A stretch of DNA of 64,000 nt from Planctomycetota bacterium (GCA_965223265.1 OZ244999.1:7296001-7360000), one strand, 5' to 3'. Shown: positions 3,819 through 20,255, counted from the stretch's first letter. The notes: generated from the letters alone by a model not told the origin. Numbers and translations are program-made.

Positions 3819-4310
3819 ATTCGTAAACTCCACTGCCATGGGTGTTTTCGTGTCTTGGCGGGGCTCTTTTTGGCTGGTAAACAACACCGCCTTTGGTACA
3901 CTCGTGCGGTCAAGTGCGGCCCGGTCTTCACGACGAAACTAACAGACGGAGTCTTCCGGAGGAAGAGATTCCGGGGCCGCGGAGAGGTCTGATCGCGGTG
4001 GTTCATCCGAGCAGAAGGATCGGTTCCTGTTAGTATCATGTCCGCCTGCGCCGGCCACGAGGCGTTAACGCACAACGCACGCCAACCGCGGTTTTCCGCA
4101 GCGATTCGACGCCGTGCAGAGGCGACCACAACGATGTGAGGGCTACACAACTGAGGCACGCCAACATGGCTTGTGGGCGCTGGCGCTGCCCGACTCCCCA
4201 CGCCGCGGCCCACATTCGTTGACTACGTTCCTACAAGTGCGATCGTGGTTGCACTTGGCGGATTTCGGTTTCACCCGCACAGTTTTTCCCTGAGCTTCCG
4301 AGACGAAAAC

Positions 4311-6692
4311 GTGCAGCTGACAGAACTCGCGGGCGCGGACGACGCGTCCGGATCGACCCTGCCGCCGAAAACAAGACTCGACGCTGCCATACAAGCAACG
4401 CGGGGTTTCCTACGCTCGATCTTTCGGCGCGGTGACGATTATCAACCCGAGGACGTGCTTTGGAGCCGCAAGACCGTCCGCGCGCGCGACGAAGACCGAG
4501 ACGACGAGACGCGGCTGGGCTACTGGATTGGCGAACTCGAGGCGGACACAACTCTCGAGTCGGACTATATCCTCTTTCTCTACTTTCTCGATAAAGAGGC
4601 CTACCGCGACAAGATTCGCAAGCTCGCCAACTTCATTCGAACGCAGCAACTTGAAGACGGTTCGTGGAACATCTTCCACAACGGCCCGCCGGAGATCAGC
4701 GCGTCGGTCAAGGCGTACTTCGCGCTGAAACTCGCGGGCTACGCCGTCGATGAACCGTTCATGAAGAAGGCCCGTGACGCAATTCTTCGCATGGGTGGCG
4801 CAGAAAACGTCAACAACTACACGAAAATCTATCTTTCGTTTCTCAATCAGTTCAACTGGAAAGAGATCCCTGCAATCCCACCGGAGATCATCCTTCTGCC
4901 GCGCTTCTTCTACTTCAACGTCTACGAGATTTCGTATTGGTCACGCGCGATTTTGATCCCGCTGTCGATCCTCTACGCGAAGAAGCCCAATCACAAGCAG
5001 ACCCCGGAAGTCACCATTGAAGAGATCTTCGCCGGCTCGAACGGCAACAACGGTCGCACCGACGAGGCGAGCGATCGTGTTGCCGCTGATCATATCGGCG
5101 CGCCGGCAGCCGACGCCGAGGCGTCAATGGCCGTGGCGAGGGATGCGGACAGCTCTCAGGCGGAGCAGGGACACCCGGCGATCGGATCGAACGGCGCGAG
5201 TTTCAACGACGCCATCGATTCGAGTTCTGCGACCAACGGCGGCCTGAAGATCCCGAAGGACCCCAATCTTCTTTCGTGGCGTAACTTTTTCGTTCTCGTC
5301 GACAGGATCCTGCGCCTGATCGAAAAGACACCGCTCAAACCCCTGCGCGGCATCGCGCTCAAGAAGGCAGAAGCGTGGGTCATATCGCGCTCAGAGGACT
5401 CCGACGGACTCGGCGCGATCTTTCCCTCGATGGTGAACAGCGTCATGGCCATGCGCTGCCTCGGTCATGACGAGAGTCATCCATGCTTCGCAACCAATCT
5501 GAAGAAGCTTCAGGAGCTGGAAATTGAAGACGGTGACTGCATTCGGCTCCAGCCTTGCCTGTCGCCGGTATGGGACACGGGGCTCGTCATCAACGCGCTT
5601 GTGGAAGCGGGCGCAGCGCCCGACGAGCCGGAGATCATCGAGGGCGCGCGCTGGCTGCTCACCAAAGAAGTTCGCAAGCCTGGCGATTGGAATCAGCGCG
5701 TTCGCGGGGTTGAGACCAGCGGTTGGCCTTTTCAATTCCGCAACGAGTTTTACCCTGACGTCGATGACACCGCCGCCGTCCTGCTGGCTCTCGAACGATG
5801 CGACCACACGAAGGTTCCCGGCCTCGAAGACTCCATCACGCGGGGGCTGAACTGGACGTTGAATATGCAGTGCAGCAACGGCGGCTGGGCCGCTTTCGAC
5901 GTGGACATCGACCATGCGCTCCTCACGCACGTGCCGTACGCCGATCACAACGCCATGCTCGATCCCGCTTGCGCCGATATCACCGGAAGAGTTCTCGAGA
6001 TGCTCGGCCGCTTTCCAGACTTGAGATCCAACCCCGTATACCGAGACGCCATCGCGCGCGGCGTCAAGTATCTCGTCGACTCCCAGCTTGCCGACGGCTC
6101 ATGGTTTGGCCGCTGGGGCGTCAACTATATCTACGGCACGTGGCAGGCGGTGAAGGGGCTGATGGCGGTCGGAGAAAACCCTCAAGCGCCGCACGTCCGC
6201 AAAGCTGTCGCCTGGCTAGTCGAACACCAAAACAGTGACGGCGGGTGGGGCGAAACTTGCGACTCCTACCGTGATGTCAAACTCAGCGGCCGTGGCACGA
6301 GCACGGTGTCGCAGACGTCCTGGGCAGTGATGGCCCTGGTGGCAACAGGCAGCGCTGACTCGCCCGCAGTCGAGCAAGGCGTTGATTTTCTCCTCCGTCG
6401 TCAGAAAAGCGATGGAACTTGGGACGAGGACGAATTCACGGGGACCGGATTCCCAGACGTGTTCTATCTGCGCTACCACCTCTACCGCGTGACGTTTCCG
6501 CTCTTCGCTTTGGGATACTACCGCAACGTCAAGTATTCCCAGAAGCCCATCGCAGCTCCAGCGAAGACGATCCCGCTCGCCAGAGCCAAGCCGAGGGGCT
6601 TGGATCTTCTTTCCCTACGCTCACTGCGGGGGAACCTCTTCCGCGGCGGCTCGAAACCTGAGACGGACGGCCAGTCAGTCACTAGCAGCTGA
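4311..6692 (+). CDS. shc: squalene-hopene cyclase
   Basis: YPDVDDTAAV (DXDDTA) catalytic motif; QW repeats (QLEDGSW, QCSNGGW, QLADGSW, QNSDGGW, QKSDGTW); SPVWDTG; RWGVNYIYGT; TGTGFP.VFYLRY. ORF open from 4173; GTG 4311 chosen as start. Confidence 0.96.
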   Translation: MQLTELAGADDASGSTLPPKTRLDAAIQATRGFLRSIFRRGDDYQPEDVLWSRKTVRARDEDRDDETRLGYWIGELEADTTLESDYILFLYFLDKEAYRDKIRKLANFIRTQQLEDGSWNIFHNGPPEISASVKAYFALKLAGYAVDEPFMKKARDAILRMGGAENVNNYTKIYLSFLNQFNWKEIPAIPPEIILLPRFFYFNVYEISYWSRAILIPLSILYAKKPNHKQTPEVTIEEIFAGSNGNNGRTDEASDRVAADHIGAPAADAEASMAVARDADSSQAEQGHPAIGSNGASFNDAIDSSSATNGGLKIPKDPNLLSWRNFFVLVDRILRLIEKTPLKPLRGIALKKAEAWVISRSEDSDGLGAIFPSMVNSVMAMRCLGHDESHPCFATNLKKLQELEIEDGDCIRLQPCLSPVWDTGLVINALVEAGAAPDEPEIIEGARWLLTKEVRKPGDWNQRVRGVETSGWPFQFRNEFYPDVDDTAAVLLALERCDHTKVPGLEDSITRGLNWTLNMQCSNGGWAAFDVDIDHALLTHVPYADHNAMLDPACADITGRVLEMLGRFPDLRSNPVYRDAIARGVKYLVDSQLADGSWFGRWGVNYIYGTWQAVKGLMAVGENPQAPHVRKAVAWLVEHQNSDGGWGETCDSYRDVKLSGRGTSTVSQTSWAVMALVATGSADSPAVEQGVDFLLRRQKSDGTWDEDEFTGTGFPDVFYLRYHLYRVTFPLFALGYYRNVKYSQKPIAAPAKTIPLARAKPRGLDLLSLRSLRGNLFRGGSKPETDGQSVTSS

Positions 6693-6695
6693 ACC

Positions 6696-7490
6696 ATGAC
6701 CCGGGAGCGCGCCAAGCAGAAGGTCGACTGCGCGATCTTCGTGGCGCTGCGCGAAGAGATGCGACCGCTGACGCCGCTGCTAAAAAAGCGTCAGGCCTGC
6801 CGTGCAAGCGACGGCAGGCGTTTCACGTGCGGCACCGTGGGACCACACACGGTCTCCCTCTGTCGCACTGGAATCGGCAGCGAACTGGCAGAAGCGCGCG
6901 CGCTCAGTCTCATTGAGACCGTCACGCCCAGGCGCGTCTTGGCCCTCGGATTCGCCGGTGGACTCCAGCCCCACCTACGTCCCGGACACCTGGTGCTCGC
7001 TGAGAAGGTATCGAATGCGGCAGGATTTGACAGCGACGTCCCAAGGGCGCCGCACGGCTGGGGGCCACCGCGGTACGTTCGTGAGCGACCCATAGCCATC
7101 CCAACCATGACCGTCGTGTGGGGCCATCTCATCAGCGTCGATCGAGTGCTCCGCGGACAGAAGGAGAAACGCGCGGCCGGCGCCGCATTGGCCGCCGACG
7201 CCGTCGACATGGAGTCGGCCGCGATCGCCGCGGTCGCCGCAGCCAACTCTATCCCGACGCTTTGCGCGCGCGCAATTCTCGATCCGTGCGACTTGGAACT
7301 GCCGTTCGACTTTGGTCAAATCGTCACCCCGGATGGCCAGACACGGCCGTTCAAAGCTCTCTTGACACTTGGCACTCGCCCCAGCACCTGGCCGTCGCTC
7401 GCGGCGTTGAGATCCGCCGCAGGTCAAGCGGCAACCGCCTTGGCGCAGGCACTTCCCGCGCTGCTGGACCTCCTGGAGCCGGAGTCGTGA
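6696..7490 (+). CDS. hpnG: hopanoid-associated nucleoside phosphorylase (HpnG-like, PNP/MTAN family)
   Basis: TGIG, GFAGGL..LRPG.LV and AVDMESAAIA motifs; starts 3 bp after the shc stop. Confidence 0.8.
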   Translation: MTRERAKQKVDCAIFVALREEMRPLTPLLKKRQACRASDGRRFTCGTVGPHTVSLCRTGIGSELAEARALSLIETVTPRRVLALGFAGGLQPHLRPGHLVLAEKVSNAAGFDSDVPRAPHGWGPPRYVRERPIAIPTMTVVWGHLISVDRVLRGQKEKRAAGAALAADAVDMESAAIAAVAAANSIPTLCARAILDPCDLELPFDFGQIVTPDGQTRPFKALLTLGTRPSTWPSLAALRSAAGQAATALAQALPALLDLLEPES

Positions 7491-7590
7491 GCGACCGTAG
7501 GTGTTAGCAACCAATCAATGCCGCGGCGTCGGCATCGGCGCCGAACCAGGCGCATGTCGGCCCGCGAGCGGGTCTAGCTCCCCTGCAGTA

Positions 7591-8133
7591 ATGAACCGAC
7601 AACCGCAGACACTCGAGCCCGTCACGAGACTCAGACGTCGCGCGACCCTCCACGCCGTTCGCGCACCCGAGCTCGATCGCTATCTCGACCGAAGAAACAT
7701 CGACCTCGTCATCACCGACGAAGTCCAGGCTCTCCAGGTGAGGTTTCGCCGTGCACTCGAGGTCTTCGAGCACCGCGTCGAGTCGGCGCTGGCAACAACA
7801 GCTCGTGCTCTGCGTCACCGGCTCCTACTGATTCTTGTTGCCGCCCTCGTCACGGCCATCAGCGCCGCCGGAGTGGAATGGTCCTCTCGGCTCCAGCCGG
7901 TTTTGCTTGGCGTCAGCGCCTTGACGATCGCGCTCCTCGCCGGCGACATGTGGTTCATCCACCAAGATCAACGCCAGCTACGGCACGCAGCTCGTGTGTT
8001 GGAGCAGTTCGATCCAAGTTCATGTGAAACCGCCGCAAAGGCCTTAGCCCTAGCCGACGAGATCCTGGGCCTCGCGCGCGCGCTCGGCGCAGTCGAACCA
8101 CGCACGTCGGACAGCAGCGATGCCGACGCTTAG
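7591..8133 (+). CDS. hypothetical membrane protein (2 TM)
   Basis: Two hydrophobic helices (LLLILVAALVTAISAAGV; VLLGVSALTIALLAG); co-oriented after hpnG; ORF open from 7501. Confidence 0.6.
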   Translation: MNRQPQTLEPVTRLRRRATLHAVRAPELDRYLDRRNIDLVITDEVQALQVRFRRALEVFEHRVESALATTARALRHRLLLILVAALVTAISAAGVEWSSRLQPVLLGVSALTIALLAGDMWFIHQDQRQLRHAARVLEQFDPSSCETAAKALALADEILGLARALGAVEPRTSDSSDADA

Positions 8134-8292
8134 CAGCCCGTTGAAAAAGTCATTCGGCCGAGAAACCGGCCTCTTCACGCCCAGCTCGACCGCGTCAATA
8201 CTCGAAAATCTCGGAGATTACCTGCGTTTGCCGCGGCCGATCTGGACGCGAAGAGACCAGTTTTCGGCTCGAAGCACTTTTTCAACAGGCTG
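8134..8292. mobile_element. MITE-like foldback element, family A, copy 1 (159 bp)
   Basis: Terminal IRs CAGCCCGTTGAAAAAGT / ACTTTTTCAACAGGCTG, flanked by a TTAG direct repeat; near-identical copies at 29379, 40633 and 55898. Confidence 0.85.
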
Positions 8293-8306
8293 TTAGCCTC
8301 GAGTTT

Positions 8307-8478
8307 GGCCTGTCTGAAAACATGCTTCGAGATGAAGACCGGCCGCTTCGCGTTCAAATCAGCCGCAGCGAACGGAGGAAATCTCCAGCCTCTTCCATGA
8401 GATGTACTGGCGGCTCGCCGCGGCTGATCTGGGCGTAAAGAGGCCAGTTTCTCAGCCGATTGACTCGTTCAACAGGCG
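8307..8478. mobile_element. family A element, degenerate copy 2 (inverted relative to copy 1)
   Basis: Aligns along its length to the other copies (gcttcga...cgcttcgcgt...ctcgccgcggctgatctgggcgt...ttcaacagg), with decayed ends. Confidence 0.75.
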
Positions 8479-8546
8479 GTTTAGGTTCGATTCACTCGAG
8501 CCGGGCAGGCCGCACCGCTCGCGACGCGGCCTGCTCCAACGCCGAG

Positions 8547-9398
8547 TTATTTGCCGGGCAGGTCGTTGTAGAGCCGACTCGCCTGCGCCAACCACTCGAC
8601 ATGATCGGCCGAGTGATCTGGCGGACTCGGGAGCGCCATGAGTTGATCAAGCGCGGCGCGGGCACCGTCGAAGTCGCCGATCTCAAGCAAGGCGCCGGCG
8701 TAGGCGAGGTGATTGCCACCGAACTGGGGACATTCCTCTGTCGCCTGGCGTAGGTACGCCATTCCTTCTTCGGCCGTACCAATGGAAAGCAGCGGGTACT
8801 CGCGCGTTGCGACGAGCAACTCGCCGAGTTCGCGCGCCGGCCCGCAGTGATCCAGGGTGGAATCGAGGTAGTACGCCATGCTGAGGTGCTCTTTAGTTCG
8901 TAGCGCGAGCTTGTCCGGCTTCATTCTCCGGATCTCGAAGAGACGCTTCAGGTTGAGTCCGTAATAGTAGTAGGACTCGGCGTGAACGCTCGACTTCGCT
9001 TTCGACACCGCCTCCTTGCCCCACCAGACCCCCTGCTTCGCGTAAGCTTCCTGCTCGCCGCGCGTCGAATGGTTCGCTAGCCAAGCGCAAGCTCGAGCGC
9101 CGCGCCACAGCGCGCCGTAGTTGTTGACGCTGGAGATCGAGTGAAGGCTCGTCTCGCGCGAGAGCTTGACGCCGGCCGGAGTTCGTGGCTCCGCGTACTG
9201 CTGGTCGATCTCCTTCATGCGCTTGGCGAGCGCCGATTCGGTCAATGCCGCGGGCTCGTAGGGGAGGCTGGGATTGACAATCGATTCCAGCTCGACGATC
9301 GGAGGCGTGTCGCTACAGCTGACGGCGACAGCCATCAGGGCGCCCAACAGACCAATCCCCACACAGCTCCCAAGCTCACTTCGCATCAAACGCATCAT
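8547..9398 (-). CDS. TPR lipoprotein, TatT/BstC-like
   Basis: Signal peptide with lipobox-like AVSC; TPR-like helices; LDSTLDHCGPARELGELL...YPLLSIG motif resembling TRAP T-component family; overlaps the upstream gene. Confidence 0.7.
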   Translation of the reverse strand: MMRLMRSELGSCVGIGLLGALMAVAVSCSDTPPIVELESIVNPSLPYEPAALTESALAKRMKEIDQQYAEPRTPAGVKLSRETSLHSISSVNNYGALWRGARACAWLANHSTRGEQEAYAKQGVWWGKEAVSKAKSSVHAESYYYYGLNLKRLFEIRRMKPDKLALRTKEHLSMAYYLDSTLDHCGPARELGELLVATREYPLLSIGTAEEGMAYLRQATEECPQFGGNHLAYAGALLEIGDFDGARAALDQLMALPSPPDHSADHVEWLAQASRLYNDLPGK

Positions 9399-10554
9399 AC
9401 TTTCCCTCCACACTTCTGAGCCATTTCTGGCGTAACTCCACAAATCCTCGCACACCCATCGTCTTCACGAGTGGCTTCGCCTTCGGGCGCTTCGACAGGG
9501 AAAGCAGCGCTTCTTTGAGTCGCCGCCTCTGCTCAGAGGTCAATCCTCTGCCAGCCGTTTCACCCTGCAGCTGAGCCGCTCGCAAGCCACCTCGCGCGTG
9601 GCGTGCCAACGATTCGCTCCTCGTCGTCTCTTCAGACTGACCTTGATCCTTCTTCTCTTCGATGGCGCTGCATGACTCGGGTCTGAGTCGGCCCTGCAGC
9701 GCCGTCTTCGCTCCGCCACCGGTGCCAGGACCGGTGCCCTGACGCTGATCCTTCCTGAGAGGACGTGCCGGCAGCGAAAAGAAGACGAAAATTGATTCCG
9801 GATAGTATTCCGACTCGAGAAGTTTCTCCACTTTTTTCCCCGGTGAAACCTCCCCAAGCGCGGCGAACTCGCGACCCGTCAGCACCACTGCGTCGACCCT
9901 ACCGCGATGGAGGCGACGCAGCGCGCGCGACACCCTCAGCGTCGGCCGGATCTGCCACGCATCGATCGCCGCCTCTTTTCCCAGCACGACACGTCGCAAA
10001 AACTCGGGCTCGTAAAGTGGACCACCGGCTACCTTCTTGCCGGCAAGGTCTTTGAGGCGCCGAAACGAACCCGCGCGAACGACGGCGACGACGCGATCCC
10101 CTGGCTCCGACTCGAGCTGCGCGTCGAGACCGAACTGACGTCGGTAGCGGAGATAGAATCCAAGGCTGACGAGTCCAAACGCCGGTTTTTTCTCCTCGAT
10201 CACTTTGGCCGCGCTTTCAGGCACGTTGTGGTAGGAACCCTCGAGCGATTCGATACCGCTCTGGGCTGCAAGGTCAGCCGAAAAACGCCGCATGAATCCC
10301 TCAGCTTCGGCGGTCGATCCGGGATATCCCGGTTGCACGATGATCCACCTCACAGCGTCCGCGGCGTTGGCGTGCGAACTGACAAGCGCGACGGTGATCG
10401 CCAGCGCCAGCACCACGGCTCGTAGCCGCGTTCTGCTTCGGTGGCCCAGGCGCTGGCCAAAGCTGGCGCGCGGGCAGAAGGGACCACCTTGCCTCGAACC
10501 CTCGTCAAAGTACCTGATCAAGCAGCTCATGACGTAACCCCTTGATGATCTCAC
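9376..10554 (-). CDS. periplasmic substrate-binding protein, PhnD/BstB-like
   Basis: Signal peptide (RLRAVVLALAITVALVSSHANA); type II PBP motifs VVRAGSFRRLKDLAGKKVA and GRVDAVVL; 4-bp GTGA overlap with the RND gene stop (alternative ATG at 10530). Confidence 0.7.
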   Translation of the reverse strand: MRSSRGYVMSCLIRYFDEGSRQGGPFCPRASFGQRLGHRSRTRLRAVVLALAITVALVSSHANAADAVRWIIVQPGYPGSTAEAEGFMRRFSADLAAQSGIESLEGSYHNVPESAAKVIEEKKPAFGLVSLGFYLRYRRQFGLDAQLESEPGDRVVAVVRAGSFRRLKDLAGKKVAGGPLYEPEFLRRVVLGKEAAIDAWQIRPTLRVSRALRRLHRGRVDAVVLTGREFAALGEVSPGKKVEKLLESEYYPESIFVFFSLPARPLRKDQRQGTGPGTGGGAKTALQGRLRPESCSAIEEKKDQGQSEETTRSESLARHARGGLRAAQLQGETAGRGLTSEQRRRLKEALLSLSKRPKAKPLVKTMGVRGFVELRQKWLRSVEGKYDAFDAK

Positions 10555-13469
10555 ATGGCTGATGCGCTCGACTGCCGTTTCTCGGCGCCTCGCGCTGCGT
10601 TACTCGAAACCCAACCGAGCCGCGACAGCACCTCGACGACCGCGGGAAGCAGAAAGACCGTGGCGCACAAAATCGTCAAGCATCCACACATCATCAACCA
10701 TCCCAGGCTTGCAACTCCACGATGATGAGCCAAGGTCAAGGAACCGAACCCAGCCATCGTGGTGATGAACGAGAGACAGACCGCGGAGGCGGTCGTACGG
10801 CTCATCTCGGCGGTCGAGCCGCATTCGCGATGGCGATGCATCATGTGAACACCACCGTCGACGCCGCAGCCGATCAGAATCGGCAGTGCGAAAAAGTTCG
10901 CAAGATTGAACTCAAGCGACAATGCCGGCATAAGCTGCAAGAGCCAAAAGAGACCGAACCCAACGGGCAGGAGGGCGAGGACCGTGCGCACCACGCTGCG
11001 GAAATCAACAAGGAGAAAACAAGCAACGATTAGCAGCGAGTACACCGCCGCGGTGAGGAACCCCTCACGCATGAGACGGGCCGATTCGAAGACCTGCAGT
11101 GGCGTTCCAGTGACTTCAGGGCTGACCTCGGCAGTAGCGCGGACAAACTCGGCCATGTTGTCGCGCTGCCAGATGTCCTTGCGAGGGTAGGCGTAGAGGA
11201 GGAGACGACCGTGCTCGGAGACGAACCTCTCTCGCACCAGTTCAGGCAAGGTCGCAATCTCGAGAGCCGGCGGACGCAAAAGGCGCGAAAGTTTCCGGCG
11301 CAGCGCCAACATTTCCGCGAACCACGTCTGCTGAAACGACTCGAGGCGATCTTTCACGGCCTGTGCATCTGCGCCGGCGTCTGCGACGACATCAAGCACC
11401 GTTTCGATGGACTCGATCCAATCGCTTAGCTGCGCGATCAGTGTGTGCCGCGCCGGCTCCATCGCTCGCAAGTCGCCATCCGTTGACATCGATCGCGTCG
11501 CTGCTGCGGAGGCACCCGACCGCAGCGCGTTCGGCGTCGGAGACGAGTTCTGCTCGTCGACTCCCGCGGTCCGCGCCAGTTGGCTTACCGCCGTGTCAAG
11601 GCGATCGATGAGTGTTTCAAGTGCCGAAGTGAGCGCGGTGACGTCAACGTCAGCCGCACCTGGTCTCTCCTCAAGCGACTCAACCACCGCCGCCGCCGGA
11701 TCGAGCATAGTTCGTCGCAGCGTCTGATCCGGAGCGATGAAGTCGCGCACGCTCTCCGTCTGTCCGACGATGCCGGCATCCCGGAGCGCCTGCAGCTTGT
11801 TGCGAATCGCATCGAGCTCGGTGAGAGATTGGGCAATGTAGACGGCCTGCCACGTGGAGGCGTCCGACTCCTCGGCAAGTAGCCGCTCGTACTTCACCGA
11901 CTCGAGCTCCTGCGATTGAAGCTCCAAGAGGTTGAAGTTGTACTCGACGCCGCGAAAACGTGTGGCACCGAAGAGGGTAGGGATCAAGAGCAGGAGAATC
12001 ACCGCATAGCGATAGCGTGGCACAAGCTCTAGCCCGGGCATGCGCAGAGGCGTCGGAGGGTGCAGCGTTCGCCGCCGCGCCAGCGCCCGGTCGGAGACGA
12101 CGATCAGCGCCGGCAGCAACGTCAGCGTGGTGAAGAGGCACACCAGCACACCAGCGCCAGCAACGAAACCCAGTTCTCTGAGTCCCTTAAAGTGGACGAG
12201 CATCGCGGTGCCAAACGCCCCTGCCGTCGTCACGCCACCGGTAAAGATGCCGACGCCTGTCGTCTCGAGCGTGTTCGTAATGGCTCGACCGATCTCCGAC
12301 GAGCTGCGCAGTTCGTCTTGATACCGAGCAACCAAGTGGATGCCGAAATCGATTCCGAGCCCTACCAACATGGCGGCAAAGACGATCGATAGGAGTGTGA
12401 GGTAGCCAATCGTCAGCGCAACGACACCGAACGTGATCGCAATGGACGTGACCAAAACGACCGCTGCGAGCAGCGGACGCCGAAGGCGACGGAATGTGAT
12501 AGCGAAAAGGAGCACAACCGTGAGCAGAGCGAGAACCGTGGCGCGCCGCATATCTCGATCGGTCGTCGTCATCTCGTCGGCCTGCAGCACCGGACGCCCG
12601 GTCAGTCCCACCTCTGCACCCGGAAACTGCGCGCGAACACGATCGAGTGCAGCGCGAATTTCTCGGAGGGGCTCCTGGATCACCGCCAAAGTCTCGTAGT
12701 TCTTCTCAGGCATGATCAGCACAAAAGCCAATTCGCCGTTGGTGCTGAACAGATAACCGTTGTCGCGCGGATGCTGGGTCTGTGTCAGCTCTTCCCCGAG
12801 TCTTGCGCTCAAGCTCTTACTCGACACCCCGGCTACAGCAGCTTGCAACGAGTCAAGATAAGCACCCAGGATCCTTCCGCCCCATTCGAGTCGGGCGTCT
12901 CCTGGCACCGAATCGCTACCGCCATCACTCATCAACTCCGAAGCAAGGAATTCTGTGAACCCAGCGAGCGTGGTGAGATGCGCGAAACGCTCGAGGAGGG
13001 GAGCGTCGCGCGTCAGCGTCTCGGCGAGCCCAGCCAGGTGTTGATTGTCGTAGCGCGCTAGCAGAAGGAGCGAGTCGCCGAACGCGTCGGAAGCGACCCG
13101 ATGGTAAACGCGATGGACGTGCTGCGGCAGTTGGCTGAGCTCTGCCGAGATGGCGTCGGCGATGCGAGCCGCACGCGCTGGATCGTCCGCGACTTGGATG
13201 ACGACGTAGAGAAACTCCTGATCGCCGAACTCGTCGACGAAATTCATGTAGCGGCGGTGGTAGTCCAAGTCGGTCGAAACCAGATCGTTCTGATCGGTTC
13301 GAATCTCGAGCTTGAGGATTGCTGCCGTGACTGCACCAGCTGCCACCATCGCGTAGCCAACGATCACGAGCCACGGGTGACGGGCGACCCACCGACCGAC
13401 ACCGCGAAGAGCGCGGGGCGCCCATCTCTGCCGCCGTGCTGCGTCCGGGGTTGTCGGCGGTTGCACCAT
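10551..13469 (-). CDS. hpnN: MMPL/RND transporter, HpnN-like hopanoid transporter
   Basis: Two RND halves with GLGIDFGIH and IGCGVDGGVH TM motifs; VGLTGRPVLQADEM; YNFNLLELQS...ESVKYE; adjacent to shc. ORF open to 13532. Confidence 0.88.
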   Translation of the reverse strand: MVQPPTTPDAARRQRWAPRALRGVGRWVARHPWLVIVGYAMVAAGAVTAAILKLEIRTDQNDLVSTDLDYHRRYMNFVDEFGDQEFLYVVIQVADDPARAARIADAISAELSQLPQHVHRVYHRVASDAFGDSLLLLARYDNQHLAGLAETLTRDAPLLERFAHLTTLAGFTEFLASELMSDGGSDSVPGDARLEWGGRILGAYLDSLQAAVAGVSSKSLSARLGEELTQTQHPRDNGYLFSTNGELAFVLIMPEKNYETLAVIQEPLREIRAALDRVRAQFPGAEVGLTGRPVLQADEMTTTDRDMRRATVLALLTVVLLFAITFRRLRRPLLAAVVLVTSIAITFGVVALTIGYLTLLSIVFAAMLVGLGIDFGIHLVARYQDELRSSSEIGRAITNTLETTGVGIFTGGVTTAGAFGTAMLVHFKGLRELGFVAGAGVLVCLFTTLTLLPALIVVSDRALARRRTLHPPTPLRMPGLELVPRYRYAVILLLLIPTLFGATRFRGVEYNFNLLELQSQELESVKYERLLAEESDASTWQAVYIAQSLTELDAIRNKLQALRDAGIVGQTESVRDFIAPDQTLRRTMLDPAAAVVESLEERPGAADVDVTALTSALETLIDRLDTAVSQLARTAGVDEQNSSPTPNALRSGASAAATRSMSTDGDLRAMEPARHTLIAQLSDWIESIETVLDVVADAGADAQAVKDRLESFQQTWFAEMLALRRKLSRLLRPPALEIATLPELVRERFVSEHGRLLLYAYPRKDIWQRDNMAEFVRATAEVSPEVTGTPLQVFESARLMREGFLTAAVYSLLIVACFLLVDFRSVVRTVLALLPVGFGLFWLLQLMPALSLEFNLANFFALPILIGCGVDGGVHMMHRHRECGSTAEMSRTTASAVCLSFITTMAGFGSLTLAHHRGVASLGWLMMCGCLTILCATVFLLPAVVEVLSRLGWVSSNAARGAEKRQSSASAM

Positions 13470-13820
13470 CTCGATGAGCAGCCTCGTGCGGTTGTCGGAA
13501 TCAGAAAACGGCGTCGAGACGTAGCTGCGCACCGCTCCAGGACAGGCGAGGAACTACGTGGCGCTCGCGCTGCCGGTCACGTATGATACTCCCTTTCGCC
13601 TCTCGTTCAATCGACGCACCACGTGCCAGTCGAAGCGTAGAAAACTCCAGGCACAGCCCGCTCAGAGAGTCATTCGGGCTGCGAAGAGAGTCTTCGAGTC
13701 GAAAACTGTTCGTCGGGGATCGCTCGGAGCGACGCTGCCCAGCGCCGCTCCTTGGCTTTGACCCTACTGGCAGCCCCAATCCCGACGCGCGTTGTCGAGA
13801 CTCAAAACCGGAAGAAACTC

Positions 13821-15044
13821 ATGTCGTTCTCCACCATCGAAACTGCCGTGAACGCCATCAAGAATGGCGACCTTGTCATCGTCGTCGACGCGGAAGATCG
13901 AGAGAACGAAGGCGACTTCATCTGCGCTGCAGAGAAGATCAATGCCGAAAAAGTCAATTTCATGGTTAAGAAGGGAGGCGGTCTACTGTGCGTGACGATG
14001 CTTCCCGATCGCGCGACGGAGCTGGACCTACCCCTCGCGCCCATCACACCGGGACGCTACGCACCGCTGAACCGCACCGCCTTCACCACCACCGTTGACA
14101 AAATCACCTGCAAGACGGGTGTCTCCGCGGCAGAGCGCGCCGAGACGATCGCAGCTATCGTCGACGAGAAAACGCGCCCCGAGGATCTAGCGCGACCAGG
14201 GCACGTGCATCCGATCATCGCACAGGAGGGAGGCGTCCTGCGGCGCGCCGGACACACCGAAGCGTCTGTCGATCTGGCCAAGCTGGCGGACTGTCGCCCG
14301 GTCGGTGTCTTGATCGAGATCCTCGACGACGACGGCAGGATGGCGCGACGCGACCGTCTGCTTGAAGTCGCGGCCGAGCATGATACCCCTATCGTTACGA
14401 TCGCTGATCTTATCCGCTACCGACGTCGGCACGAGAAACTCGTTCACCGCATCGCGAGCGCAGATCTGCCGACGCGCTTCGGCAAGTTTCGCGTCTATGG
14501 GTTCGACGTCGCCCACGACACACAGCAGCCAATCGCTCTGGTCATGGGAGACGTCACGAAAGCCAAAGCGCCGCTGGTGCGCATGCATTCTTCTTGCTTT
14601 ACGGGCGATCTGCTTTCGAGCTTGCGCTGCGAGTGCGGCGATCAACTGCACATCGCGCTCGAGATGATCGCAGCCGAAGGCGCCGGAGTCGTCGTCTATC
14701 TCCCCCAGGAAGGTCGCGGCATCGGCCTGATCGAAAAGATCAAGGCTTACGAGCTGCAGGACGGTGGTCTCGACACCGTCGAGGCGAACGAAGCCCTGGG
14801 CTACCGCGCGGATATGCGCGACTATGGGGTCGGCATCCAGATCCTTAAAGATCTCGGACTCAGCGAGATCCGGCTGCTGACGAACAACCGGAAGAAGACG
14901 GACTCGTTCATCTACTACGGCTATGACTTGACCGTGGTCCGGCAAGAGCCTCTTCTAGCACCACCGCGCCCGGAGAGGCGTAAGTACCTCCAGACCAAAC
15001 GTGACAAACTGGGTCACGATCTGCCAGCCGACGAAGAGGAGTGA
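13821..15044 (+). CDS. ribBA: bifunctional DHBP synthase / GTP cyclohydrolase II
   Basis: DRENEGD, RRAGHTEA, RMHSSCFTGD..SLRCECG, QEGRGIGL, RLLTNN motifs. Confidence 0.96.
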   Translation: MSFSTIETAVNAIKNGDLVIVVDAEDRENEGDFICAAEKINAEKVNFMVKKGGGLLCVTMLPDRATELDLPLAPITPGRYAPLNRTAFTTTVDKITCKTGVSAAERAETIAAIVDEKTRPEDLARPGHVHPIIAQEGGVLRRAGHTEASVDLAKLADCRPVGVLIEILDDDGRMARRDRLLEVAAEHDTPIVTIADLIRYRRRHEKLVHRIASADLPTRFGKFRVYGFDVAHDTQQPIALVMGDVTKAKAPLVRMHSSCFTGDLLSSLRCECGDQLHIALEMIAAEGAGVVVYLPQEGRGIGLIEKIKAYELQDGGLDTVEANEALGYRADMRDYGVGIQILKDLGLSEIRLLTNNRKKTDSFIYYGYDLTVVRQEPLLAPPRPERRKYLQTKRDKLGHDLPADEEE

Positions 15045-15177: not shown

Positions 15178-18100
15178 ATGTCGTCAAGAACGAACACGCG
15201 GCGTTACTCGATCATTGGCACGGCAGCACGCGTTGTGGTCGCCCTCACTTTCGTCGCCGCGTCGGTGCTTGCCGGCACCTATTTGGCGCTGCCTCTCCTT
15301 GGCCTTCGCGGCGACCTCAACGCACTCGTGGCAGGAATCGTGCGCTCAGCGTTCAGCGTTCCGGTGAGTATCGGTGCCGTCGTGACCGAACCCCTAAGCC
15401 ACCTATCGATCACACGCCTGCGCACCGTGGCTCTAAACGCGCAGGGCAAAGTCAACTTCGCCACCGACGAAATCTCGTTTCACTACGACCCGTTGGAGTT
15501 GATTGCCGGAAACTTGCAAAAGATCGAAATCCGCGGCCCGACCATGTACTTGAATCTCGACGCTGACTTGAACGGAGTCGCACAGATGCCGACTCTTCCA
15601 GCCGAGGATGGCGTCGGTAGACCACCCCCACCACCCGGGACCCGACTCCTGCCGTTTTCCAGCCAAGAAACGATTCTCCACAGCGGTGACGTCACCCTAC
15701 GAGTGGGCGGTCGTGAGCTGCACCTCGAAAACCTTTCTGTGCATGTTCACAACCTTGGCGCAGCCCACGACCAACGCTTCAGCGTTCGGCTGGCGGCTTT
15801 CGGCGCTGCTCTCAAAGTGGATGGCCGCCTCGACGTCACCACTGGAAGCGACGGAGCGCGCCGTTACACATTCGTCGACACGACCGTTTCAGTTGAGCGT
15901 CTCGCCCTCCGGCGTCTGATCGAATGGCTCGCAAGCGCGGAGGTCGTAGCGGCGGCAACGAGCGAGACGGAGGCAGCGCGGCCGGCAGAGTCCGAGACGC
16001 GTTCCGCATCGCGAACGGCGGCGGACGCCGGGCCGGCTGCGGATGCGGACAATACAGACTCAGAATCAAACTCAGACTCAGAATCGGAATTGGCGTCAGT
16101 CTCGGTGTCGGCTTCGGACTCCACGCTAGGCATCGCTGCGTCCACGCTCTCGGCTCGCCGACGCGCAGCACCGCTCTCGGGCCTCTCCCACCAACTGCTG
16201 GACCTTCTTCAGCAGGCGTCCGGCAGCGTCCAGGTTGAAGGCGCACTCCGAGGCACGTGGCCGGATCGAGTGGAACTCACACTCACGTCTCGTGGCCATG
16301 ACCTCGAAACCCGCTACGCAGACGCGCTCACCGTCTCGGACGGCGCTGCGAACTTGACGCTTGAGTGTGTCGCCCTTGGGGGACTCGATTCGGTTAGGTT
16401 CCGGCTTGAGAGTGGGCTTTCGGGGCAGCTCGAGTCGAGCGCGCTGGTGACACAGCAGCAGGCCCGGCTGTCCGCGAACGGGGACGTCTCTCGCACATCG
16501 TCCGCGGGAGCGGCAGGCTATCGGTTGAACCTCGAAGACTTCGAAGCCGAGTTGATCAGTCACGTCCTGGGCGGCGGGCAGAACGCTCAGAGTGAAGAGA
16601 GACGAACTGAACCGTCACGCACACGCGGACGCCTGTCCCAAGCCACGTTTGATACGACGCAGAGTCGTCTCGCCGTCGCGACTGTCGACATCGCCTCGTC
16701 ACCCGTGCCGGCAGCCCACATTCTGGCGCACCTGCCAGAATCACTGCGACCGCGTCACTGGGGAGTCGAAGTCGGCGACACGCGCGTATCCGTTGATTTC
16801 CAAGCGCGTGACGTTGAACTCGATGAGCTGGGGCTCGCAGGAAAGCTCATGGCGAATCTCGCCTTCGAGCCCACGGACATTCGGTGGGCGCGCCGCGAAA
16901 CAGAGGCGCGGGGCGTCGGTCTCGACGTCGGTGTCGAAATCGTCTCCATGCGCGAGCGCAGCGACCTCAGAGTCGAAACAGTCAACAGCTCTGACGATCC
17001 GGGACACTTGCAGCTGCGAGGCCAAGCCGCGCTTCGTTTCGAGGAAGCGCTTGTTGGCGACGTCTACCTGCCGACGAGCATGCGCCCGTGGCAACTCGAC
17101 GTTCGCAGCACCTACGGAACCGGCGGTGACAGCGCGGCGGCAATCGAGATCGAAAGCGCGCGTCTCGAAGCCGCACCGTTCGGCACCGTTTTCGTGACCG
17201 GGCACGTAATCCCGGCGCCAGCCACGAGGGACGGTGGCGACGCCCGAGAGCCAGCAGTCGCATTGGAAGTGCGCACGGGGAAGCTCGACGTTTCGCGACT
17301 TTTTTCGACTCTCGTCGTCGAACCGCACACCCTGACCTATCCGTGGCTTGCCGAAGCGGAACTCGACGGGCGCGGCGCCGTCGACGCTGAAATCCTCGGT
17401 ACGTTCAAGGCTCTGCGGGCCACCGGCCGCGTCCGACTGGAAAAGTCACACGCCAAGGTCGCGTCACTCGCCGCAACGGGGCTGAACGTCGATCTTCCGT
17501 TCACGATTCGCCCGCTTGCAGAACAGCCGCCGAAGTCGGGCTTCATCAAGGCGAAACTGTTCAACGTCGCAGGCGTTCGCTTGAACGACGTGTCAGTGGA
17601 GCTACGACACCGCGCCGGAGTCTACGACGTTGCACAGCCCGTGACCCTGCCACTCTTCGGCGGCAGGTTGAACCTGTCGCGCCTGACGCTGTTCGGCGGG
17701 CCGGGACGCGACGTGCCGACGTGGCGGGCCGAACTGAGTGCTGAAGATCTTGATCTCGAGGAGATGACACAGTTCGCCGGGTGGCCGACGATCCGCGGCA
17801 CAATGAACGCCGTGGCGCGTCCGCTTCACTTTCGGCAAGGCCATCTCGACTGGAGCGGCCATCTGGAGCTCCGCGCGTTCGGCGGTCGCATCCGCTTTTC
17901 CGATCTGACGCTCGATGATGTACTGCAGCCGTACGCGAGCCTCCAACTTGGCGAGGGTTCGATCGAGAACGTCCGTTTGCGTGAGATGGGCGAGACGTTT
18001 CACTTCGGCATCATGAGCGGGATACTCACCGGAAGAGCGAAGAACTTTCAACTCACCGCGGGCGAGCTGTCGGCGTTCGATCTCAAGCTTCACACAATAC

Positions 18101-18465
18101 CCACGCCAGGAGTCGAACAGTACGTCGACCGACGAGCGGCGGACAGTCTCCGGCGCACACTCAGTGGTCCGCTCGGCGCCGTCGAAGAAGGTCTCTTCTC
18201 GAAGTTCTACTATCAAGATTTTGGATTCTCCGCCAGCCTGCGCGATGGTGCGCTCTATCTCCAGGGCGACCATCGCGAAGGCGATACGGAGTACATCATG
18301 TTAGGACGCTGGTACCAGGTTCCCAGCATCAGTATCATCAACAGCAAGCCAGGGCGCCCCTACGACTGGGAAGCGATCGTCGCGAATGTTCGTTCGATCT
18401 ATGAACGCAAGCAAGAGTCGTCCTCGAAGACCCGACGCTCGGCACCAGACGCACCAACGAAATGA
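15178..18465 (+). CDS. AsmA-like/YdbH-type intermembrane bridge protein
   Basis: N-terminal TM anchor, long beta-rich body, C-terminal LFGGRL...DLDLEEMT...AFGGRI repeats; directly upstream of a YnbE/YdbL-like gene. Confidence 0.7.
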   Translation: MSSRTNTRRYSIIGTAARVVVALTFVAASVLAGTYLALPLLGLRGDLNALVAGIVRSAFSVPVSIGAVVTEPLSHLSITRLRTVALNAQGKVNFATDEISFHYDPLELIAGNLQKIEIRGPTMYLNLDADLNGVAQMPTLPAEDGVGRPPPPPGTRLLPFSSQETILHSGDVTLRVGGRELHLENLSVHVHNLGAAHDQRFSVRLAAFGAALKVDGRLDVTTGSDGARRYTFVDTTVSVERLALRRLIEWLASAEVVAAATSETEAARPAESETRSASRTAADAGPAADADNTDSESNSDSESELASVSVSASDSTLGIAASTLSARRRAAPLSGLSHQLLDLLQQASGSVQVEGALRGTWPDRVELTLTSRGHDLETRYADALTVSDGAANLTLECVALGGLDSVRFRLESGLSGQLESSALVTQQQARLSANGDVSRTSSAGAAGYRLNLEDFEAELISHVLGGGQNAQSEERRTEPSRTRGRLSQATFDTTQSRLAVATVDIASSPVPAAHILAHLPESLRPRHWGVEVGDTRVSVDFQARDVELDELGLAGKLMANLAFEPTDIRWARRETEARGVGLDVGVEIVSMRERSDLRVETVNSSDDPGHLQLRGQAALRFEEALVGDVYLPTSMRPWQLDVRSTYGTGGDSAAAIEIESARLEAAPFGTVFVTGHVIPAPATRDGGDAREPAVALEVRTGKLDVSRLFSTLVVEPHTLTYPWLAEAELDGRGAVDAEILGTFKALRATGRVRLEKSHAKVASLAATGLNVDLPFTIRPLAEQPPKSGFIKAKLFNVAGVRLNDVSVELRHRAGVYDVAQPVTLPLFGGRLNLSRLTLFGGPGRDVPTWRAELSAEDLDLEEMTQFAGWPTIRGTMNAVARPLHFRQGHLDWSGHLELRAFGGRIRFSDLTLDDVLQPYASLQLGEGSIENVRLREMGETFHFGIMSGILTGRAKNFQLTAGELSAFDLKLHTIPTPGVEQYVDRRAADSLRRTLSGPLGAVEEGLFSKFYYQDFGFSASLRDGALYLQGDHREGDTEYIMLGRWYQVPSISIINSKPGRPYDWEAIVANVRSIYERKQESSSKTRRSAPDAPTK

Positions 18466-18503
18466 CGCCATGCGCTTGAGCGAGCTTTCAGGAAGGAGGC
18501 GTG

Positions 18504-19265
18504 ATGAGATCCCATGCTCTGTTCAAGTTCTGCGTTCACCCTTCGGAATCACCTAGGTCGACCATCTCCGCGGGGTCTCTGAGTGTGTGCGCACTCTTGG
18601 TCGGCTGCAGCATCAACATCCATATCCACTTCCCAGAGAAAGAGCTCGAAGACGCTGCCGACCAGATCGTCGAAGAAGTGCGTCCGACCATCGCGGTGAA
18701 CGACGTCGATTCCGAATCGAGAGAATTCGAACCACCGATTCTCGATCAACCGGTCGCACCAGAAGAGAGCGAAGAAGAGGTCAGAGTCGCTCCGGACCAA
18801 GAGCGCAGCGTGTGGGTCAGCTGGATTCTGGGTCGAAGGGCGCACGCTCAAGCGGCGACTGAGAAGATCAAAATCAACATCTCGTCGCCGAAGATCACGA
18901 AGATTAAGTTGTCGCTGAGAAAGCGCTTCCCGAAGCTAGTGCCGCACTACAAAAGCGGCAAGATCGGCGAAGGGTTTGACGGCTTCGTCGCGCTACGCGC
19001 AAAGAAACTCGGCCTCAAAGAGAAACGCGACCTCACCAAACTTCTCGCTGCAGAGAACATCGATCGGCGGAACCTCTACACGGCGATCGCGGTAGAGAAC
19101 GAAATCGATAAAAAGGACATTGGCAAAGTCGGCGAAGTCTTTAGCCGGTCGTGGCAAAAGAAGTGTCTGCCGGGATGGTGGATCGAACCAGTGAAAGGCA
19201 AGTGGGAGAAGAAGAAGAAAAAGAAAAAGAAGGACTCGAGCGTTCGCGCGGAGACTCAAGCCTGA
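18504..19265 (+). CDS. YnbE-like lipoprotein fused to a YdbL/DUF1318 domain
   Basis: Lipobox LLVGC followed by SINIHIHFP; DUF1318-like KIGEGFDGFV, AENIDRRNLYTAIA, PGWWIE..GKW; poly-Lys tail. Confidence 0.8.
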   Translation: MRSHALFKFCVHPSESPRSTISAGSLSVCALLVGCSINIHIHFPEKELEDAADQIVEEVRPTIAVNDVDSESREFEPPILDQPVAPEESEEEVRVAPDQERSVWVSWILGRRAHAQAATEKIKINISSPKITKIKLSLRKRFPKLVPHYKSGKIGEGFDGFVALRAKKLGLKEKRDLTKLLAAENIDRRNLYTAIAVENEIDKKDIGKVGEVFSRSWQKKCLPGWWIEPVKGKWEKKKKKKKKDSSVRAETQA

Positions 19266-20255
19266 ATGAGTCTATCGCGCTTCCTGTCGCTCTACTGGTT
19301 TCTCATCCTCCTGGTCGTCGCCATCATCCTCGGAACACTGGCGCCGAATGCGGCGCACGTCGTCCGCAGCTCCGGATTTGTCATTCCCACGCTCGTCGGC
19401 GTGACGCTCTTCATCTCCGGCTTTACTCTCGACACCGGGCGCTTGATTCAGCAAGCGACCAACTTTCGCGCGATCGCGCTAGCGACGACGGCCACGTATC
19501 TCGTAGCGCCTCTGGCGGCCTACCTTCTTGCCGGGCTGTGGGCACCCGCATCGGTGGAAAAGAGTCAGCACTTTCTACCGGCACTGATGATCATGGCAGC
19601 GCAGGCGAGCACACTGGCAACGTCGATTGCACTCACCATGGTCGCCGCTGGCAACAAAGAGCTCGCCCTGATTCTGACACTCGCCTCGAGCCTCCTCACC
19701 GTGGTGCTGACTCCGATCATACTCGACGTCAGCCTCGGAGCAGTTGTCGCGTTCGACACGTCGCAAATGATCCGAGACATCGGGCTCGCTGTGGCGCTAC
19801 CCGTTTTTCTCGGTCAGATCGCCCGCCGTTTCCTGTGGAATCTCGCCGCGCCGCTGAAGCGTCCCCTGCGCGTTGTTCCCCAACTGATCATTCTTGTGTT
19901 CGTTTACACAGGATTCGCCAGCGCCGCTACGAAGCTTCAACAAGAGCCGGAGCTGGCGGCACTTTTTTTCGGCGCATGCGCCTCGCTGCATGTCCTTCTT
20001 TTGACCTGGAACTTCTCAGCAGCCCTCCTCTTCAAACTGCCGGCGTCGGACCGAACCGCTTTGGTCTTTTGCGGTTCCCAAAAGACGCTGCCGAACGGCA
20101 TCTTGGTGTGGACGAAGTTTTTTCCAGCCAACCCATACGGCGCCGTGCCTCTCGTCCTCTATCACCTTTGCCAACTCGTCATCGACACGCTACTCGTCCC
20201 TCTTTTCGAGAAGCAGAATGCCGGATCGTCGACGCCACCGCGGCAAACATCCTGA
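19266..20255 (+). CDS. bile acid:sodium symporter family (SBF-like) transporter
   Basis: About 9-10 TM helices; FCGSQKTLPNG and PLVLYHLCQL motifs. Confidence 0.88.
   Translation: MSLSRFLSLYWFLILLVVAIILGTLAPNAAHVVRSSGFVIPTLVGVTLFISGFTLDTGRLIQQATNFRAIALATTATYLVAPLAAYLLAGLWAPASVEKSQHFLPALMIMAAQASTLATSIALTMVAAGNKELALILTLASSLLTVVLTPIILDVSLGAVVAFDTSQMIRDIGLAVALPVFLGQIARRFLWNLAAPLKRPLRVVPQLIILVFVYTGFASAATKLQQEPELAALFFGACASLHVLLLTWNFSAALLFKLPASDRTALVFCGSQKTLPNGILVWTKFFPANPYGAVPLVLYHLCQLVIDTLLVPLFEKQNAGSSTPPRQTS

Follow-up and report, generated by a model that had tools for sequence, protein, structure and literature searches.

Which lipid is moved, and towards which membrane, by a three-gene transport operon that converges on a squalene-hopene cyclase gene in a planctomycete? 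The question is raised by a stretch of 64,000 nucleotides from a Planctomycetota bacterium (GCA_965223265.1, OZ244999.1), called the window here, which covers positions 7,296,001-7,360,000 of a 9.18-Mb single-contig genome (estimated completeness 91.65%) and whose nearest public relatives are metagenome-assembled genomes (MAGs) of Planctomycetota. On its minus strand a resistance-nodulation-division (RND) transporter, a periplasmic binding protein (PBP) and a lipoprotein are encoded side by side, opposite shc, the gene of squalene-hopene cyclase (SHC), and an hpnG-like gene. From homology and gene linkage, we consider it fairly likely that the three proteins form a relay for hopanoids from the inner membrane through the periplasm to the outer membrane, a route with Bst-type carriers for which we found no earlier description. 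The reading draws on the gene order, the kinship of families and folds, the export signals, a genome without detectable sterol genes, the linkage to shc and a distribution that excludes HpnM. The five genes at issue are, in window coordinates:

10551-13469, minus strand: HpnN-like RND/MMPL inner-membrane transporter, 972 aa from the ATG at 13469, frame open to a GTG at 13532
9376-10554, minus strand: BstB-like PBP, 392 aa (GTG at 10554) or 384 aa (ATG at 10530)
8547-9398, minus strand: BstC-like (TatT-superfamily) all-helical lipoprotein, 283 aa, lipobox Cys28
4173-6692, plus strand: squalene-hopene cyclase (shc), longest frame, 690 bits on TIGR01507 against a cut-off of 431
6696-7490, plus strand: HpnG-like nucleosidase/phosphorylase (PNP_UDP_1), 116 bits on the HpnG model TIGR03468, under the cut-off of 187

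The list of open reading frames (ORFs) and the family matches agree with the original prediction, made from the sequence of the window, of three overlapping minus-strand genes converging on shc and hpnG, which lie on the plus strand 1-6 kb from the triad. The open frames span 10551-13532 (993 aa), 9376-10554 (392 aa) and 8547-9455 (302 aa), and starts at 13469 for the RND and 9398 for the lipoprotein give the products listed above. With these starts and the GTG at 10554 for the PBP, the predicted overlaps were reproduced, 4 bp between the RND stop and the PBP start (10551-10554) and 23 bp between the PBP stop and the lipoprotein ATG (9376-9398). The PBP start is uncertain, as the protein collection entry (P0004) begins at the ATG at 10530 and has 384 aa; that start would leave a 20-bp gap to the RND gene instead of the 4-bp overlap, which is thus uncertain as well. 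The cyclase is indeed an SHC and not an oxidosqualene cyclase (OSC), as had been claimed: its product carries the motif YPDVDDTA, lacks DCTA, exceeds the TIGR01507 cut-off and reaches only 274 bits on the OSC model TIGR03463, against a cut-off of 851. The true start of shc probably lies downstream of the longest-frame start.

To which families do the two carriers belong? The PBP has a signal peptide ending ANA/AD, and its sole NCBIfam match is BstB (NF045601, 84.8 bits, E 5.5e-24), under the 350-bit equivalog cut-off. The proposed likeness to BstB holds at the level of predicted structure as well. BstB (7T1M) is the best sequence match in the PDB (E 6e-18), and it is also the top solved match in Foldseek (E 1.5e-17, TM-score 0.81 on the target), followed by ArrX, PtxB and PhnD, for an AlphaFold2 model with a predicted local distance difference test (pLDDT) value of 77, in which residues 1-29 and 259-327 are below 50. 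The kinship is distant, with 28% identity over 222 aa to P0130, a protein that passes the BstB cut-off with 407.8 bits. The original prediction had also asked what kind of pocket the PBP has. BstB has 19 described cavity residues (PMC10942540), 13 of which could be placed by sequence alignment, and all 13 are identical or hydrophobic in the PBP; the numbering (chain index + 20 = the paper's number) uses an offset derived from the PBP-7T1M alignment. Some of these cavity positions do not vary at all in a 17-member alignment, namely Tyr-Pro in QPGYPGS, Ser-Leu in VSLGFYL, one Met and one Phe. Glu118 of BstB is aligned with Asp in the PBP, Tyr120 with Val and Asn192 with Thr.

The PBP also carries an insert of about 70 residues (259-327 of the 384-aa form; window 9553-9759), which is Gly- and charge-rich, of low complexity and, by prediction, disordered. 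Placed between a strand and the last helices, it interrupts the PBP fold; it is absent from BstB, and is found with variable length at the same site in all 17 close PBP homologues.

The lipoprotein has the lipobox AVSC with Cys28, a cysteine present in at least 90% of 36 aligned homologues. Pfam recognises TPR_19/TPR_14 in it, and the sole NCBIfam match is BstC (NF045602, 44.2 bits, E 1.6e-11), again under a 350-bit cut-off. The best PDB sequence match is BstC 7T1S (E 1.4e-7), with the stretches GPxRxLG and NHLxYA in common. The structural comparison with BstC gave the same answer: for an AlphaFold2 model with pLDDT 89, Foldseek put 7T1S on top of the solved structures (E 1e-6, TM-score 0.78 on the target), with 8G52 and 8G53 at ranks 3-4, the TPR domain of PTPIP51 also among the matches and 3U64 (Tp0956) at rank 6. 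The Pfam TatT family PF16811 did not match even at E <= 1. An uncontrolled complex prediction for the mature PBP with the lipoprotein scored 0.00, which decides neither for nor against contact.

Elsewhere in the genome there is an orphan BstC/TatT-like paralogue (G000:C1:3568422-3569261, L027:8423-9262, minus strand), which outscores the operon copy on the BstC model with 66 bits and matches Pfam TatT. Its neighbours are a Ser/Thr kinase gene on one side and a 286-aa frame without a family on the other, with no PBP or RND gene nearby.

The pump is a different case. Pfam assigns it to MMPL (137 bits), and in the NCBIfam ranking two HpnN models come first (TIGR03480, 507.1 bits with a cut-off of 751.85; NF052374, 343.6 bits with a cut-off of 1100), followed by BstA (NF045600, 277.6 bits with a cut-off of 1400); it stays under the curated cut-offs of all three. 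Its closest solved relative is HpnN of Burkholderia multivorans (5KHN, E 2e-54). The Asp of transmembrane helix 4 is conserved, as the D of GLGVD (position 344, chain 5KHN_B) aligns with the D of GLGID in the window RND; we take this to be the charged helix-4 residue of the HpnN proton relay, D344 of B. multivorans HpnN. Profile scores, by which alone it is placed here between HpnN and BstA (the tree described below holds no BstA), put the pump closer to HpnN (507 bits) than to BstA (278 bits) and make it an HpnN-type one. HpnN-type RND pumps are reportedly needed for hopanoids to reach the outer membrane, a result that citing papers ascribe to Doughty et al. 2011. The original prediction had described the triad as BstABC-like; this stands for the BstB- and BstC-like carriers but has to be given up for the pump. 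As far as sequence can tell, the system is an HpnN-type pump with Bst-type carriers and not a copy of BstABC.

Is the arrangement kept in other genomes? A word-indexed search of 5.8 billion proteins found 17 relatives of the PBP with 35-49% identity, and a pattern scan with one genome per species gave seven loci, all from Planctomycetota MAGs and with PBPs 33-48% identical, in which genes were identified by tblastn with the window proteins. The lipoprotein follows the PBP in all seven loci, the RND gene precedes the PBP in all six that are assessable (L033 begins at the PBP), and hpnG and shc converge on the triad in five; of the remaining two, L036 extends no further than the lipoprotein, and L034 runs on for 2.2 kb without a match until its contig ends. 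The HpnG-like gene keeps its position after shc in L031, L032, L033, L035, L037 and L047.

For the phylum as a whole, 401 Planctomycetota genomes (400 sampled and the window's own) were searched with four queries, namely PBP, SHC, the HpnN-like RND and HpnM; these genomes are related to each other, and the proportions given here are descriptive and not a test. It turned out that the PBP profile matches 50 genomes and that 145 have an SHC above the cut-off, 47 of the 50 PBP-bearing genomes versus 98 of the 351 without PBP. Three PBP-bearing genomes lack SHC: G040, G072 (whose PBP match is weak, E 2.9e-4) and G295 (84% complete). An HpnN-like RND (E <= 1e-90) occurs in 100 genomes, in five of which it exceeds the TIGR03480 cut-off, and is found in 48 of the 50 PBP-bearing genomes (all except G072 and G198) versus 52 of the 351 others. 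In 19 genomes, which belong to the coded families f1, f2, f3, f26, f30, f79, f91, f95 and f102, the PBP gene and shc share a contig and are no more than about 6 kb apart. Among the 50 PBP genomes, 30 have an adjacent RND gene, 37 have RND or shc, and 12 have both; most of the 13 that have neither are fragmented assemblies or weak matches.

The layouts are not the same from lineage to lineage. The triad and shc are convergent in the window and in L047 (f2); in L044 (f102) shc, hpnG, RND, PBP and lipoprotein follow each other on one strand; in L045 (f79) shc is divergent from RND-PBP-lipoprotein; and L043 (f30) has shc-lipoprotein-PBP with no RND gene. These differing layouts suggest that the carriers and shc are functionally linked. 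The neighbourhood survey bears out the proposed association: in at least nine coded Planctomycetota families shc stays linked either to the whole triad or to the two carriers. The linkage is not universal.

The fetched loci were analysed by strand-specific ORF lists and six-frame hidden Markov model searches. In the scanned loci HpnN is the top-scoring model for the RNDs, at 447-471 bits, whereas BstA gives 191-296 bits, and the PBPs match BstB (E 1e-4 to 1e-38) with the exception of the f57 PBP of L040, which has no NCBIfam match and is recognised by our custom profile alone (E 7e-14). The lipoproteins match BstC with E 1e-13 to 1e-23 wherever NCBIfam recognises them. Two loci of family f26 (L042:9289-13126 and L048:6911-10753) have PBP, lipoprotein and shc in a row with no RND gene nearby, and the HpnN-like pumps of these genomes are on other contigs; the middle gene of both loci is recognised by the custom profile alone (E 1e-22 to 1e-25).

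What, then, has become of HpnM, the usual partner of HpnN, which had not been seen in the window? The genome-wide search did not find it either. In the phylum sample it is above the cut-off in only two genomes (G184 and G264, both f29), neither of which has the PBP, and in both it lies directly upstream of an above-cut-off HpnN, near shc (G184:C110:15886-21333 and G264:C1:448509-464157). Judged from these genes, the proteobacterial-type HpnM-HpnN route is present in Planctomycetota too, in lineages without the Bst-type pair. Among the 50 PBP genomes, a weak HpnM-like match (40 bits) occurs only in G321.

In a quick maximum-likelihood tree of 29 RNDs (midpoint root; branch support by the Shimodaira-Hasegawa-like approximate likelihood ratio test, SH-aLRT; the fuller search was incomplete), the 18 PBP-adjacent pumps and a PBP-less pump from f74 make up a group of 19 (SH-aLRT 85), and the two true, above-cut-off planctomycete HpnNs form a separate clade. 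Of the phylogenetic placement that had been suggested, the part concerning HpnN was obtained in this way, as the PBP-adjacent RNDs are grouped apart from the above-cut-off HpnNs, and BstA was compared by profile scores. The grouping in the tree and the mutual exclusion of HpnM and PBP point to two alternative partner sets, with two branches of HpnN-type pumps, in the same phylum.

We also searched the genome for the enzymes that make the possible cargoes, where an absence means "not found" at the estimated completeness of 91.65%. One true SHC, HpnH (543 bits) and two squalene/phytoene-synthase-family (SQS_PSY) genes are present. In the 9.18-Mb genome, OSC, squalene epoxidase, HpnM, MlaA and DUF2147 were not found; a search for the first two had been proposed in the original prediction. 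A second, divergent SHC-like cyclase of 687 aa lies on the minus strand, 3.5 Mb from the triad (G000:C1:3744166-3746229, L028:7166-9229). It has the motif PDADDTA (DADD) and 105 bits on the squalene/oxidosqualene cyclase subfamily model TIGR01787, and next to it are genes for a prenyltransferase-like protein, a DUF116-fused polyprenyl synthetase, a 4Fe-4S protein and a CobW GTPase. The cyclase does not belong to the OSCs and fits the "SHC-like" clade described in PMC12414744.

How could such a set work? In the relay that we infer, with its ligand, its direction, its hand-over from protein to protein and the membrane assigned to the lipoprotein, the proton-driven HpnN-type RND would extract hopanoids, made by SHC and extended by HpnH and HpnG, from the inner membrane. 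It would hand them to the secreted BstB-type PBP, whose hydrophobic cavity would hold the ring system, and the PBP would shuttle them across the periplasm to the BstC-type lipoprotein at the outer membrane. The direction of export is chosen because of the role ascribed to HpnN and of the BstABC model, as set out in PMC10942540 and PMC11713862.

How far do these carriers reach beyond the phylum? A profile of 31 PBPs searched against 1.84 billion representatives gave 2388 matches at E <= 0.001, of which 721 remain at E <= 1e-10 and 316 at E <= 1e-30. Among the best 150 representatives, 149 match only BstB among the specific families. When 68 representatives were scanned singly, only P0130 exceeded the BstB cut-off, with four more at 267-282 bits. 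In a FastTree of 173 PBPs, which is effectively unrooted and most of whose branches come without taxon or genomic context, the branch with P0130 (the BstB group) has 6 members, and the PBPs from planctomycete loci, shc-linked or not, are spread over at least six other clades. According to a language-model atlas, whose results serve as leads only, BstB-named clusters are commonest in Pseudomonadota, Myxococcota and Planctomycetota.

We scanned metagenomes with a seed from one other PBP clade (a 7-row alignment), obtaining 80 loci that survey that clade alone. The lipoprotein follows the PBP in all 50 assessable loci. Among the 26 loci that reach 2.8 kb or more upstream, tblastn located an HpnN-like RND gene there in 2, which is an undercount of MMPL neighbours because Pfam detected divergent MMPL genes, missed by tblastn, in 2 of 9 long loci. 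Taken together, the metagenome and phylum results indicate that the conserved core is the PBP-lipoprotein pair, and tight linkage to shc is seen only for Planctomycetota. One locus of the scan, L139:2288-11607, has a glycosyltransferase of the GT21 type between shc and the PBP-lipoprotein pair; GT21 is the Pfam family of HpnI. In P0150, a representative of 871 aa from the PBP profile search, a single polypeptide contains the last two-thirds of an HpnN/BstA-like RND (residues 2-576) and then a BstB-like PBP (597-867). It may be a natural fusion or a gene-call run-through, and would, if real, support a direct coupling of pump and PBP.

The size of the family (2388 members), the near-exclusive BstB matches, the small BstB branch and the constant pairing with the lipoprotein lead us to a broader reading, which we offer tentatively and with some doubt. 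BstB/BstC-type pairs could be broad and old periplasmic carriers of polycyclic triterpenoids, with hopanoids as a major and perhaps the original cargo, and the sterol-binding BstBC of methanotrophs could be a small derived branch. In Planctomycetota, the pair would then replace the MlaC-like HpnM route beside HpnN-type pumps, without common descent.

Several observations weigh against a hopanoid relay. In two complete f13 genomes the triad lies megabases from shc, and in f57 (16 PBP-bearing genomes, with weak PBP matches of E 1e-5 to 1e-15) the intact triad never adjoins it, being distant or on a different contig. G040 has RND and PBP without SHC, and no lipoprotein was detected there. Conversely, the PBP is missing from 98 genomes that have SHC, and when ten HpnN-like loci were taken from such lineages, none had a neighbour of the Bst type. 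In the metagenome clade, shc lies within 10 kb in only 1 of the 80 loci (L139). The RND, PBP and lipoprotein are all far under the cut-offs of BstA, BstB, BstC and HpnN, and the cavity residues of BstC map to a mix of hydrophobic and charged residues in the lipoprotein, in a pairwise alignment whose helix register is possibly off. The Bst model itself rests on binding assays and docking rather than on demonstrated transport, according to PMC10942540. The relay of the original prediction is supported, with two corrections: the fold, the sterol-gene search, the shc linkage and the alignable pocket residues are favourable to it, and the corrections are that the pump belongs with HpnN and that the linkage is not universal.

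Could the same three-part machine carry another hydrophobic cargo, such as squalene, carotenoids, the product of the second cyclase or a general envelope lipid, with the proximity to shc being incidental? TatT-superfamily relatives, among them 8G52 and 8G53, are fatty-acid binders (PMC11713862), the genome has the DADD cyclase beside a polyprenyl synthetase, and the triad is unlinked to shc in f13, f57 and most loci of the second clade. We nevertheless think this unlikely, since SHC accompanies the PBP in 47 of 50 genomes and lies within about 6 kb of it in 19 of them in differing layouts, HpnN is the best family model of the pump in every scanned locus, and the second cyclase is 3.5 Mb away from the triad.

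A second possibility accepts hopanoids as the cargo and reverses or balances the flow: the lipid would be carried back from the outer membrane or taken up, a direction that has been argued for the Mla and the TatT/TRAP (tripartite ATP-independent periplasmic transport) systems. PBPs and TatT proteins classically serve importers, as PMC11713862 has it, and the direction is experimentally unfixed even for BstABC, going by PMC10942540. On the other side, no ATP-binding cassette (ABC) or TRAP transporter genes were found by Pfam among the ORFs at window positions 1-26,716. HpnN-type pumps are also, according to citing papers, reported to be needed for delivery to the outer membrane, and we regard inward transport as rather improbable.

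That the triad is a true sterol transporter like BstABC, acting on sterols acquired from outside, we hold to be very improbable. BstB and BstC are the nearest characterised proteins, but the genome search for OSC and squalene epoxidase came back empty, an OSC-like gene (E <= 1e-100) occurs in only 1 of the 50 PBP genomes (G321, 690 bits, under the 851 cut-off), the scores are far under the Bst cut-offs with a pump that prefers the HpnN model, and the neighbours are shc and hpnG. Finally, an ordinary phosphonate, phosphite or oxyanion binder of an ABC importer beside an unrelated TPR protein is scarcely credible: the Pfam family Phosphonate-bd (PF12974) does match the PBP (37.7 bits, cut-off 27) and ArrX, PtxB and PhnD follow BstB in the fold search, but the Pfam match covers residues 334-378 alone (the last 45), the PhnD model TIGR03431 has no match at E <= 0.001, no ABC permease or ATPase lies in the first 26.7 kb of the window, and the lipoprotein follows the PBP in 7 of 7 close and 50 of 50 distant-clade loci.

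Besides the five genes listed above, the following lies between hpnG and the triad:

7501-8133, plus strand: small predicted two-helix membrane protein without a family, downstream of hpnG, with two hydrophobic stretches in its translation

This protein had no Pfam or NCBIfam family match, and its homologues occupy the same position in L031, L033 and L035; it may be part of the hopanoid locus. On the other side of the triad, ribBA lies upstream of the RND gene on the opposite strand. Further on, at 15178-20255 on the plus strand, there are a 1095-aa frame without a family, a DUF1318 protein and an SBF-like (bile acid:sodium symporter family) transporter, and all three are matched in L031, across ribBA from the triad. 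It is curious that a transporter from a family named for steroid-like substrates should lie near a hopanoid locus. A promoter and terminator scan of 6500-14000 gave one promoter-like site (upstream of the RND gene) against 1.0 expected from shuffles, which is no better than chance.

If the hopanoid relay is right, the ligand range of the Bst folds widens from sterols to hopanoids, and a natural carrier pair becomes available for studying how proteins distinguish the two. The two small soluble carriers could be expressed and tested directly against hopanoids and sterols. Gene annotation would improve as well, since pipelines now label such proteins as phosphonate-binding or TPR.

How does the locus compare with the systems already described? 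BstABC of Methylococcus capsulatus (Zhai et al., eLife 2024, PMC10942540; 7T1M, 7T1S) is a sterol transporter and the sole characterised system built on this plan; the periplasmic domain of BstA, BstB and BstC bind 4-methylsterols in vitro. The same paper counts 16 sequences for BstB and 13 for BstC, in small isolated clusters that invariably adjoin sterol genes. As in BstABC, an RND of the MMPL type, a periplasmic binder with the PhnD fold and a lipoprotein with the TatT fold are encoded side by side near a triterpenoid cyclase, both carriers have their closest matches in BstB and BstC by sequence as well as by fold, and most alignable BstB cavity residues are conserved or hydrophobic in the window PBP. 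The window triad departs from BstABC in several ways: identity does not exceed about 20-28%, the models of BstB, BstC and BstA give 85, 44 and 278 bits where 350, 350 and 1400 are required, the pump is nearer to HpnN, the PBP carries its disordered insert of about 70 residues, and the neighbours are shc and hpnG instead of osc and sdmAB, in a genome with no detectable sterol pathway.

The window RND resembles HpnN of Rhodopseudomonas palustris and Burkholderia multivorans (5KHN/5KHS) in its best family model, its best solved relative, its aligned helix-4 Asp and its place beside hopanoid genes. It differs from HpnN in its scores (507 versus 752 and 344 versus 1100 bits), in the separate grouping of PBP-adjacent RNDs in the quick tree, and in its partners, which are of the Bst type and not HpnM. 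The lipoprotein is like the TatT proteins of TRAP-T (Tp0956, 3U64; Enhygromyxa salina, 8G52) in its all-helical TPR-like fold, and unlike them in that PF16811 does not match it, no TRAP genes are nearby and BstC ranks higher.

The closest functional parallel is the HpnM/HpnS/HpnT model for Pseudomonadota (Lawrence et al., bioRxiv 2025-26, PMC12324291), which likewise was derived from microsynteny with shc and hpnN; a 2026 commentary sums up the field of hopanoid trafficking likewise. These are the only periplasmic hopanoid proposals that we found, and they are computational and confined to Pseudomonadota. The proposed job is alike, to bring hopanoids from HpnN across the periplasm to an outer-membrane lipoprotein. 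The proteins are unrelated: theirs are MlaC-like, MlaA-like and lipocalin-like, whereas the window carriers have PhnD and TatT folds, and none of their three was found in the genome of the window. The text of PMC12324291 contains no "Bst", "PhnD" or "TatT" in version 1 and no "Bst", "phosphonate" or "TPR" in version 2, supplementary tables excluded, and in the full-text literature we found no description that links Bst-type proteins to hopanoids. In conclusion, what appears to be new here, on the evidence of homology and gene neighbourhood, is an HpnN-type pump with Bst-type carriers that is tied to hopanoid and not sterol synthesis, which makes the locus a second, unrelated candidate route for hopanoids, in a phylum with an unusual cell envelope.

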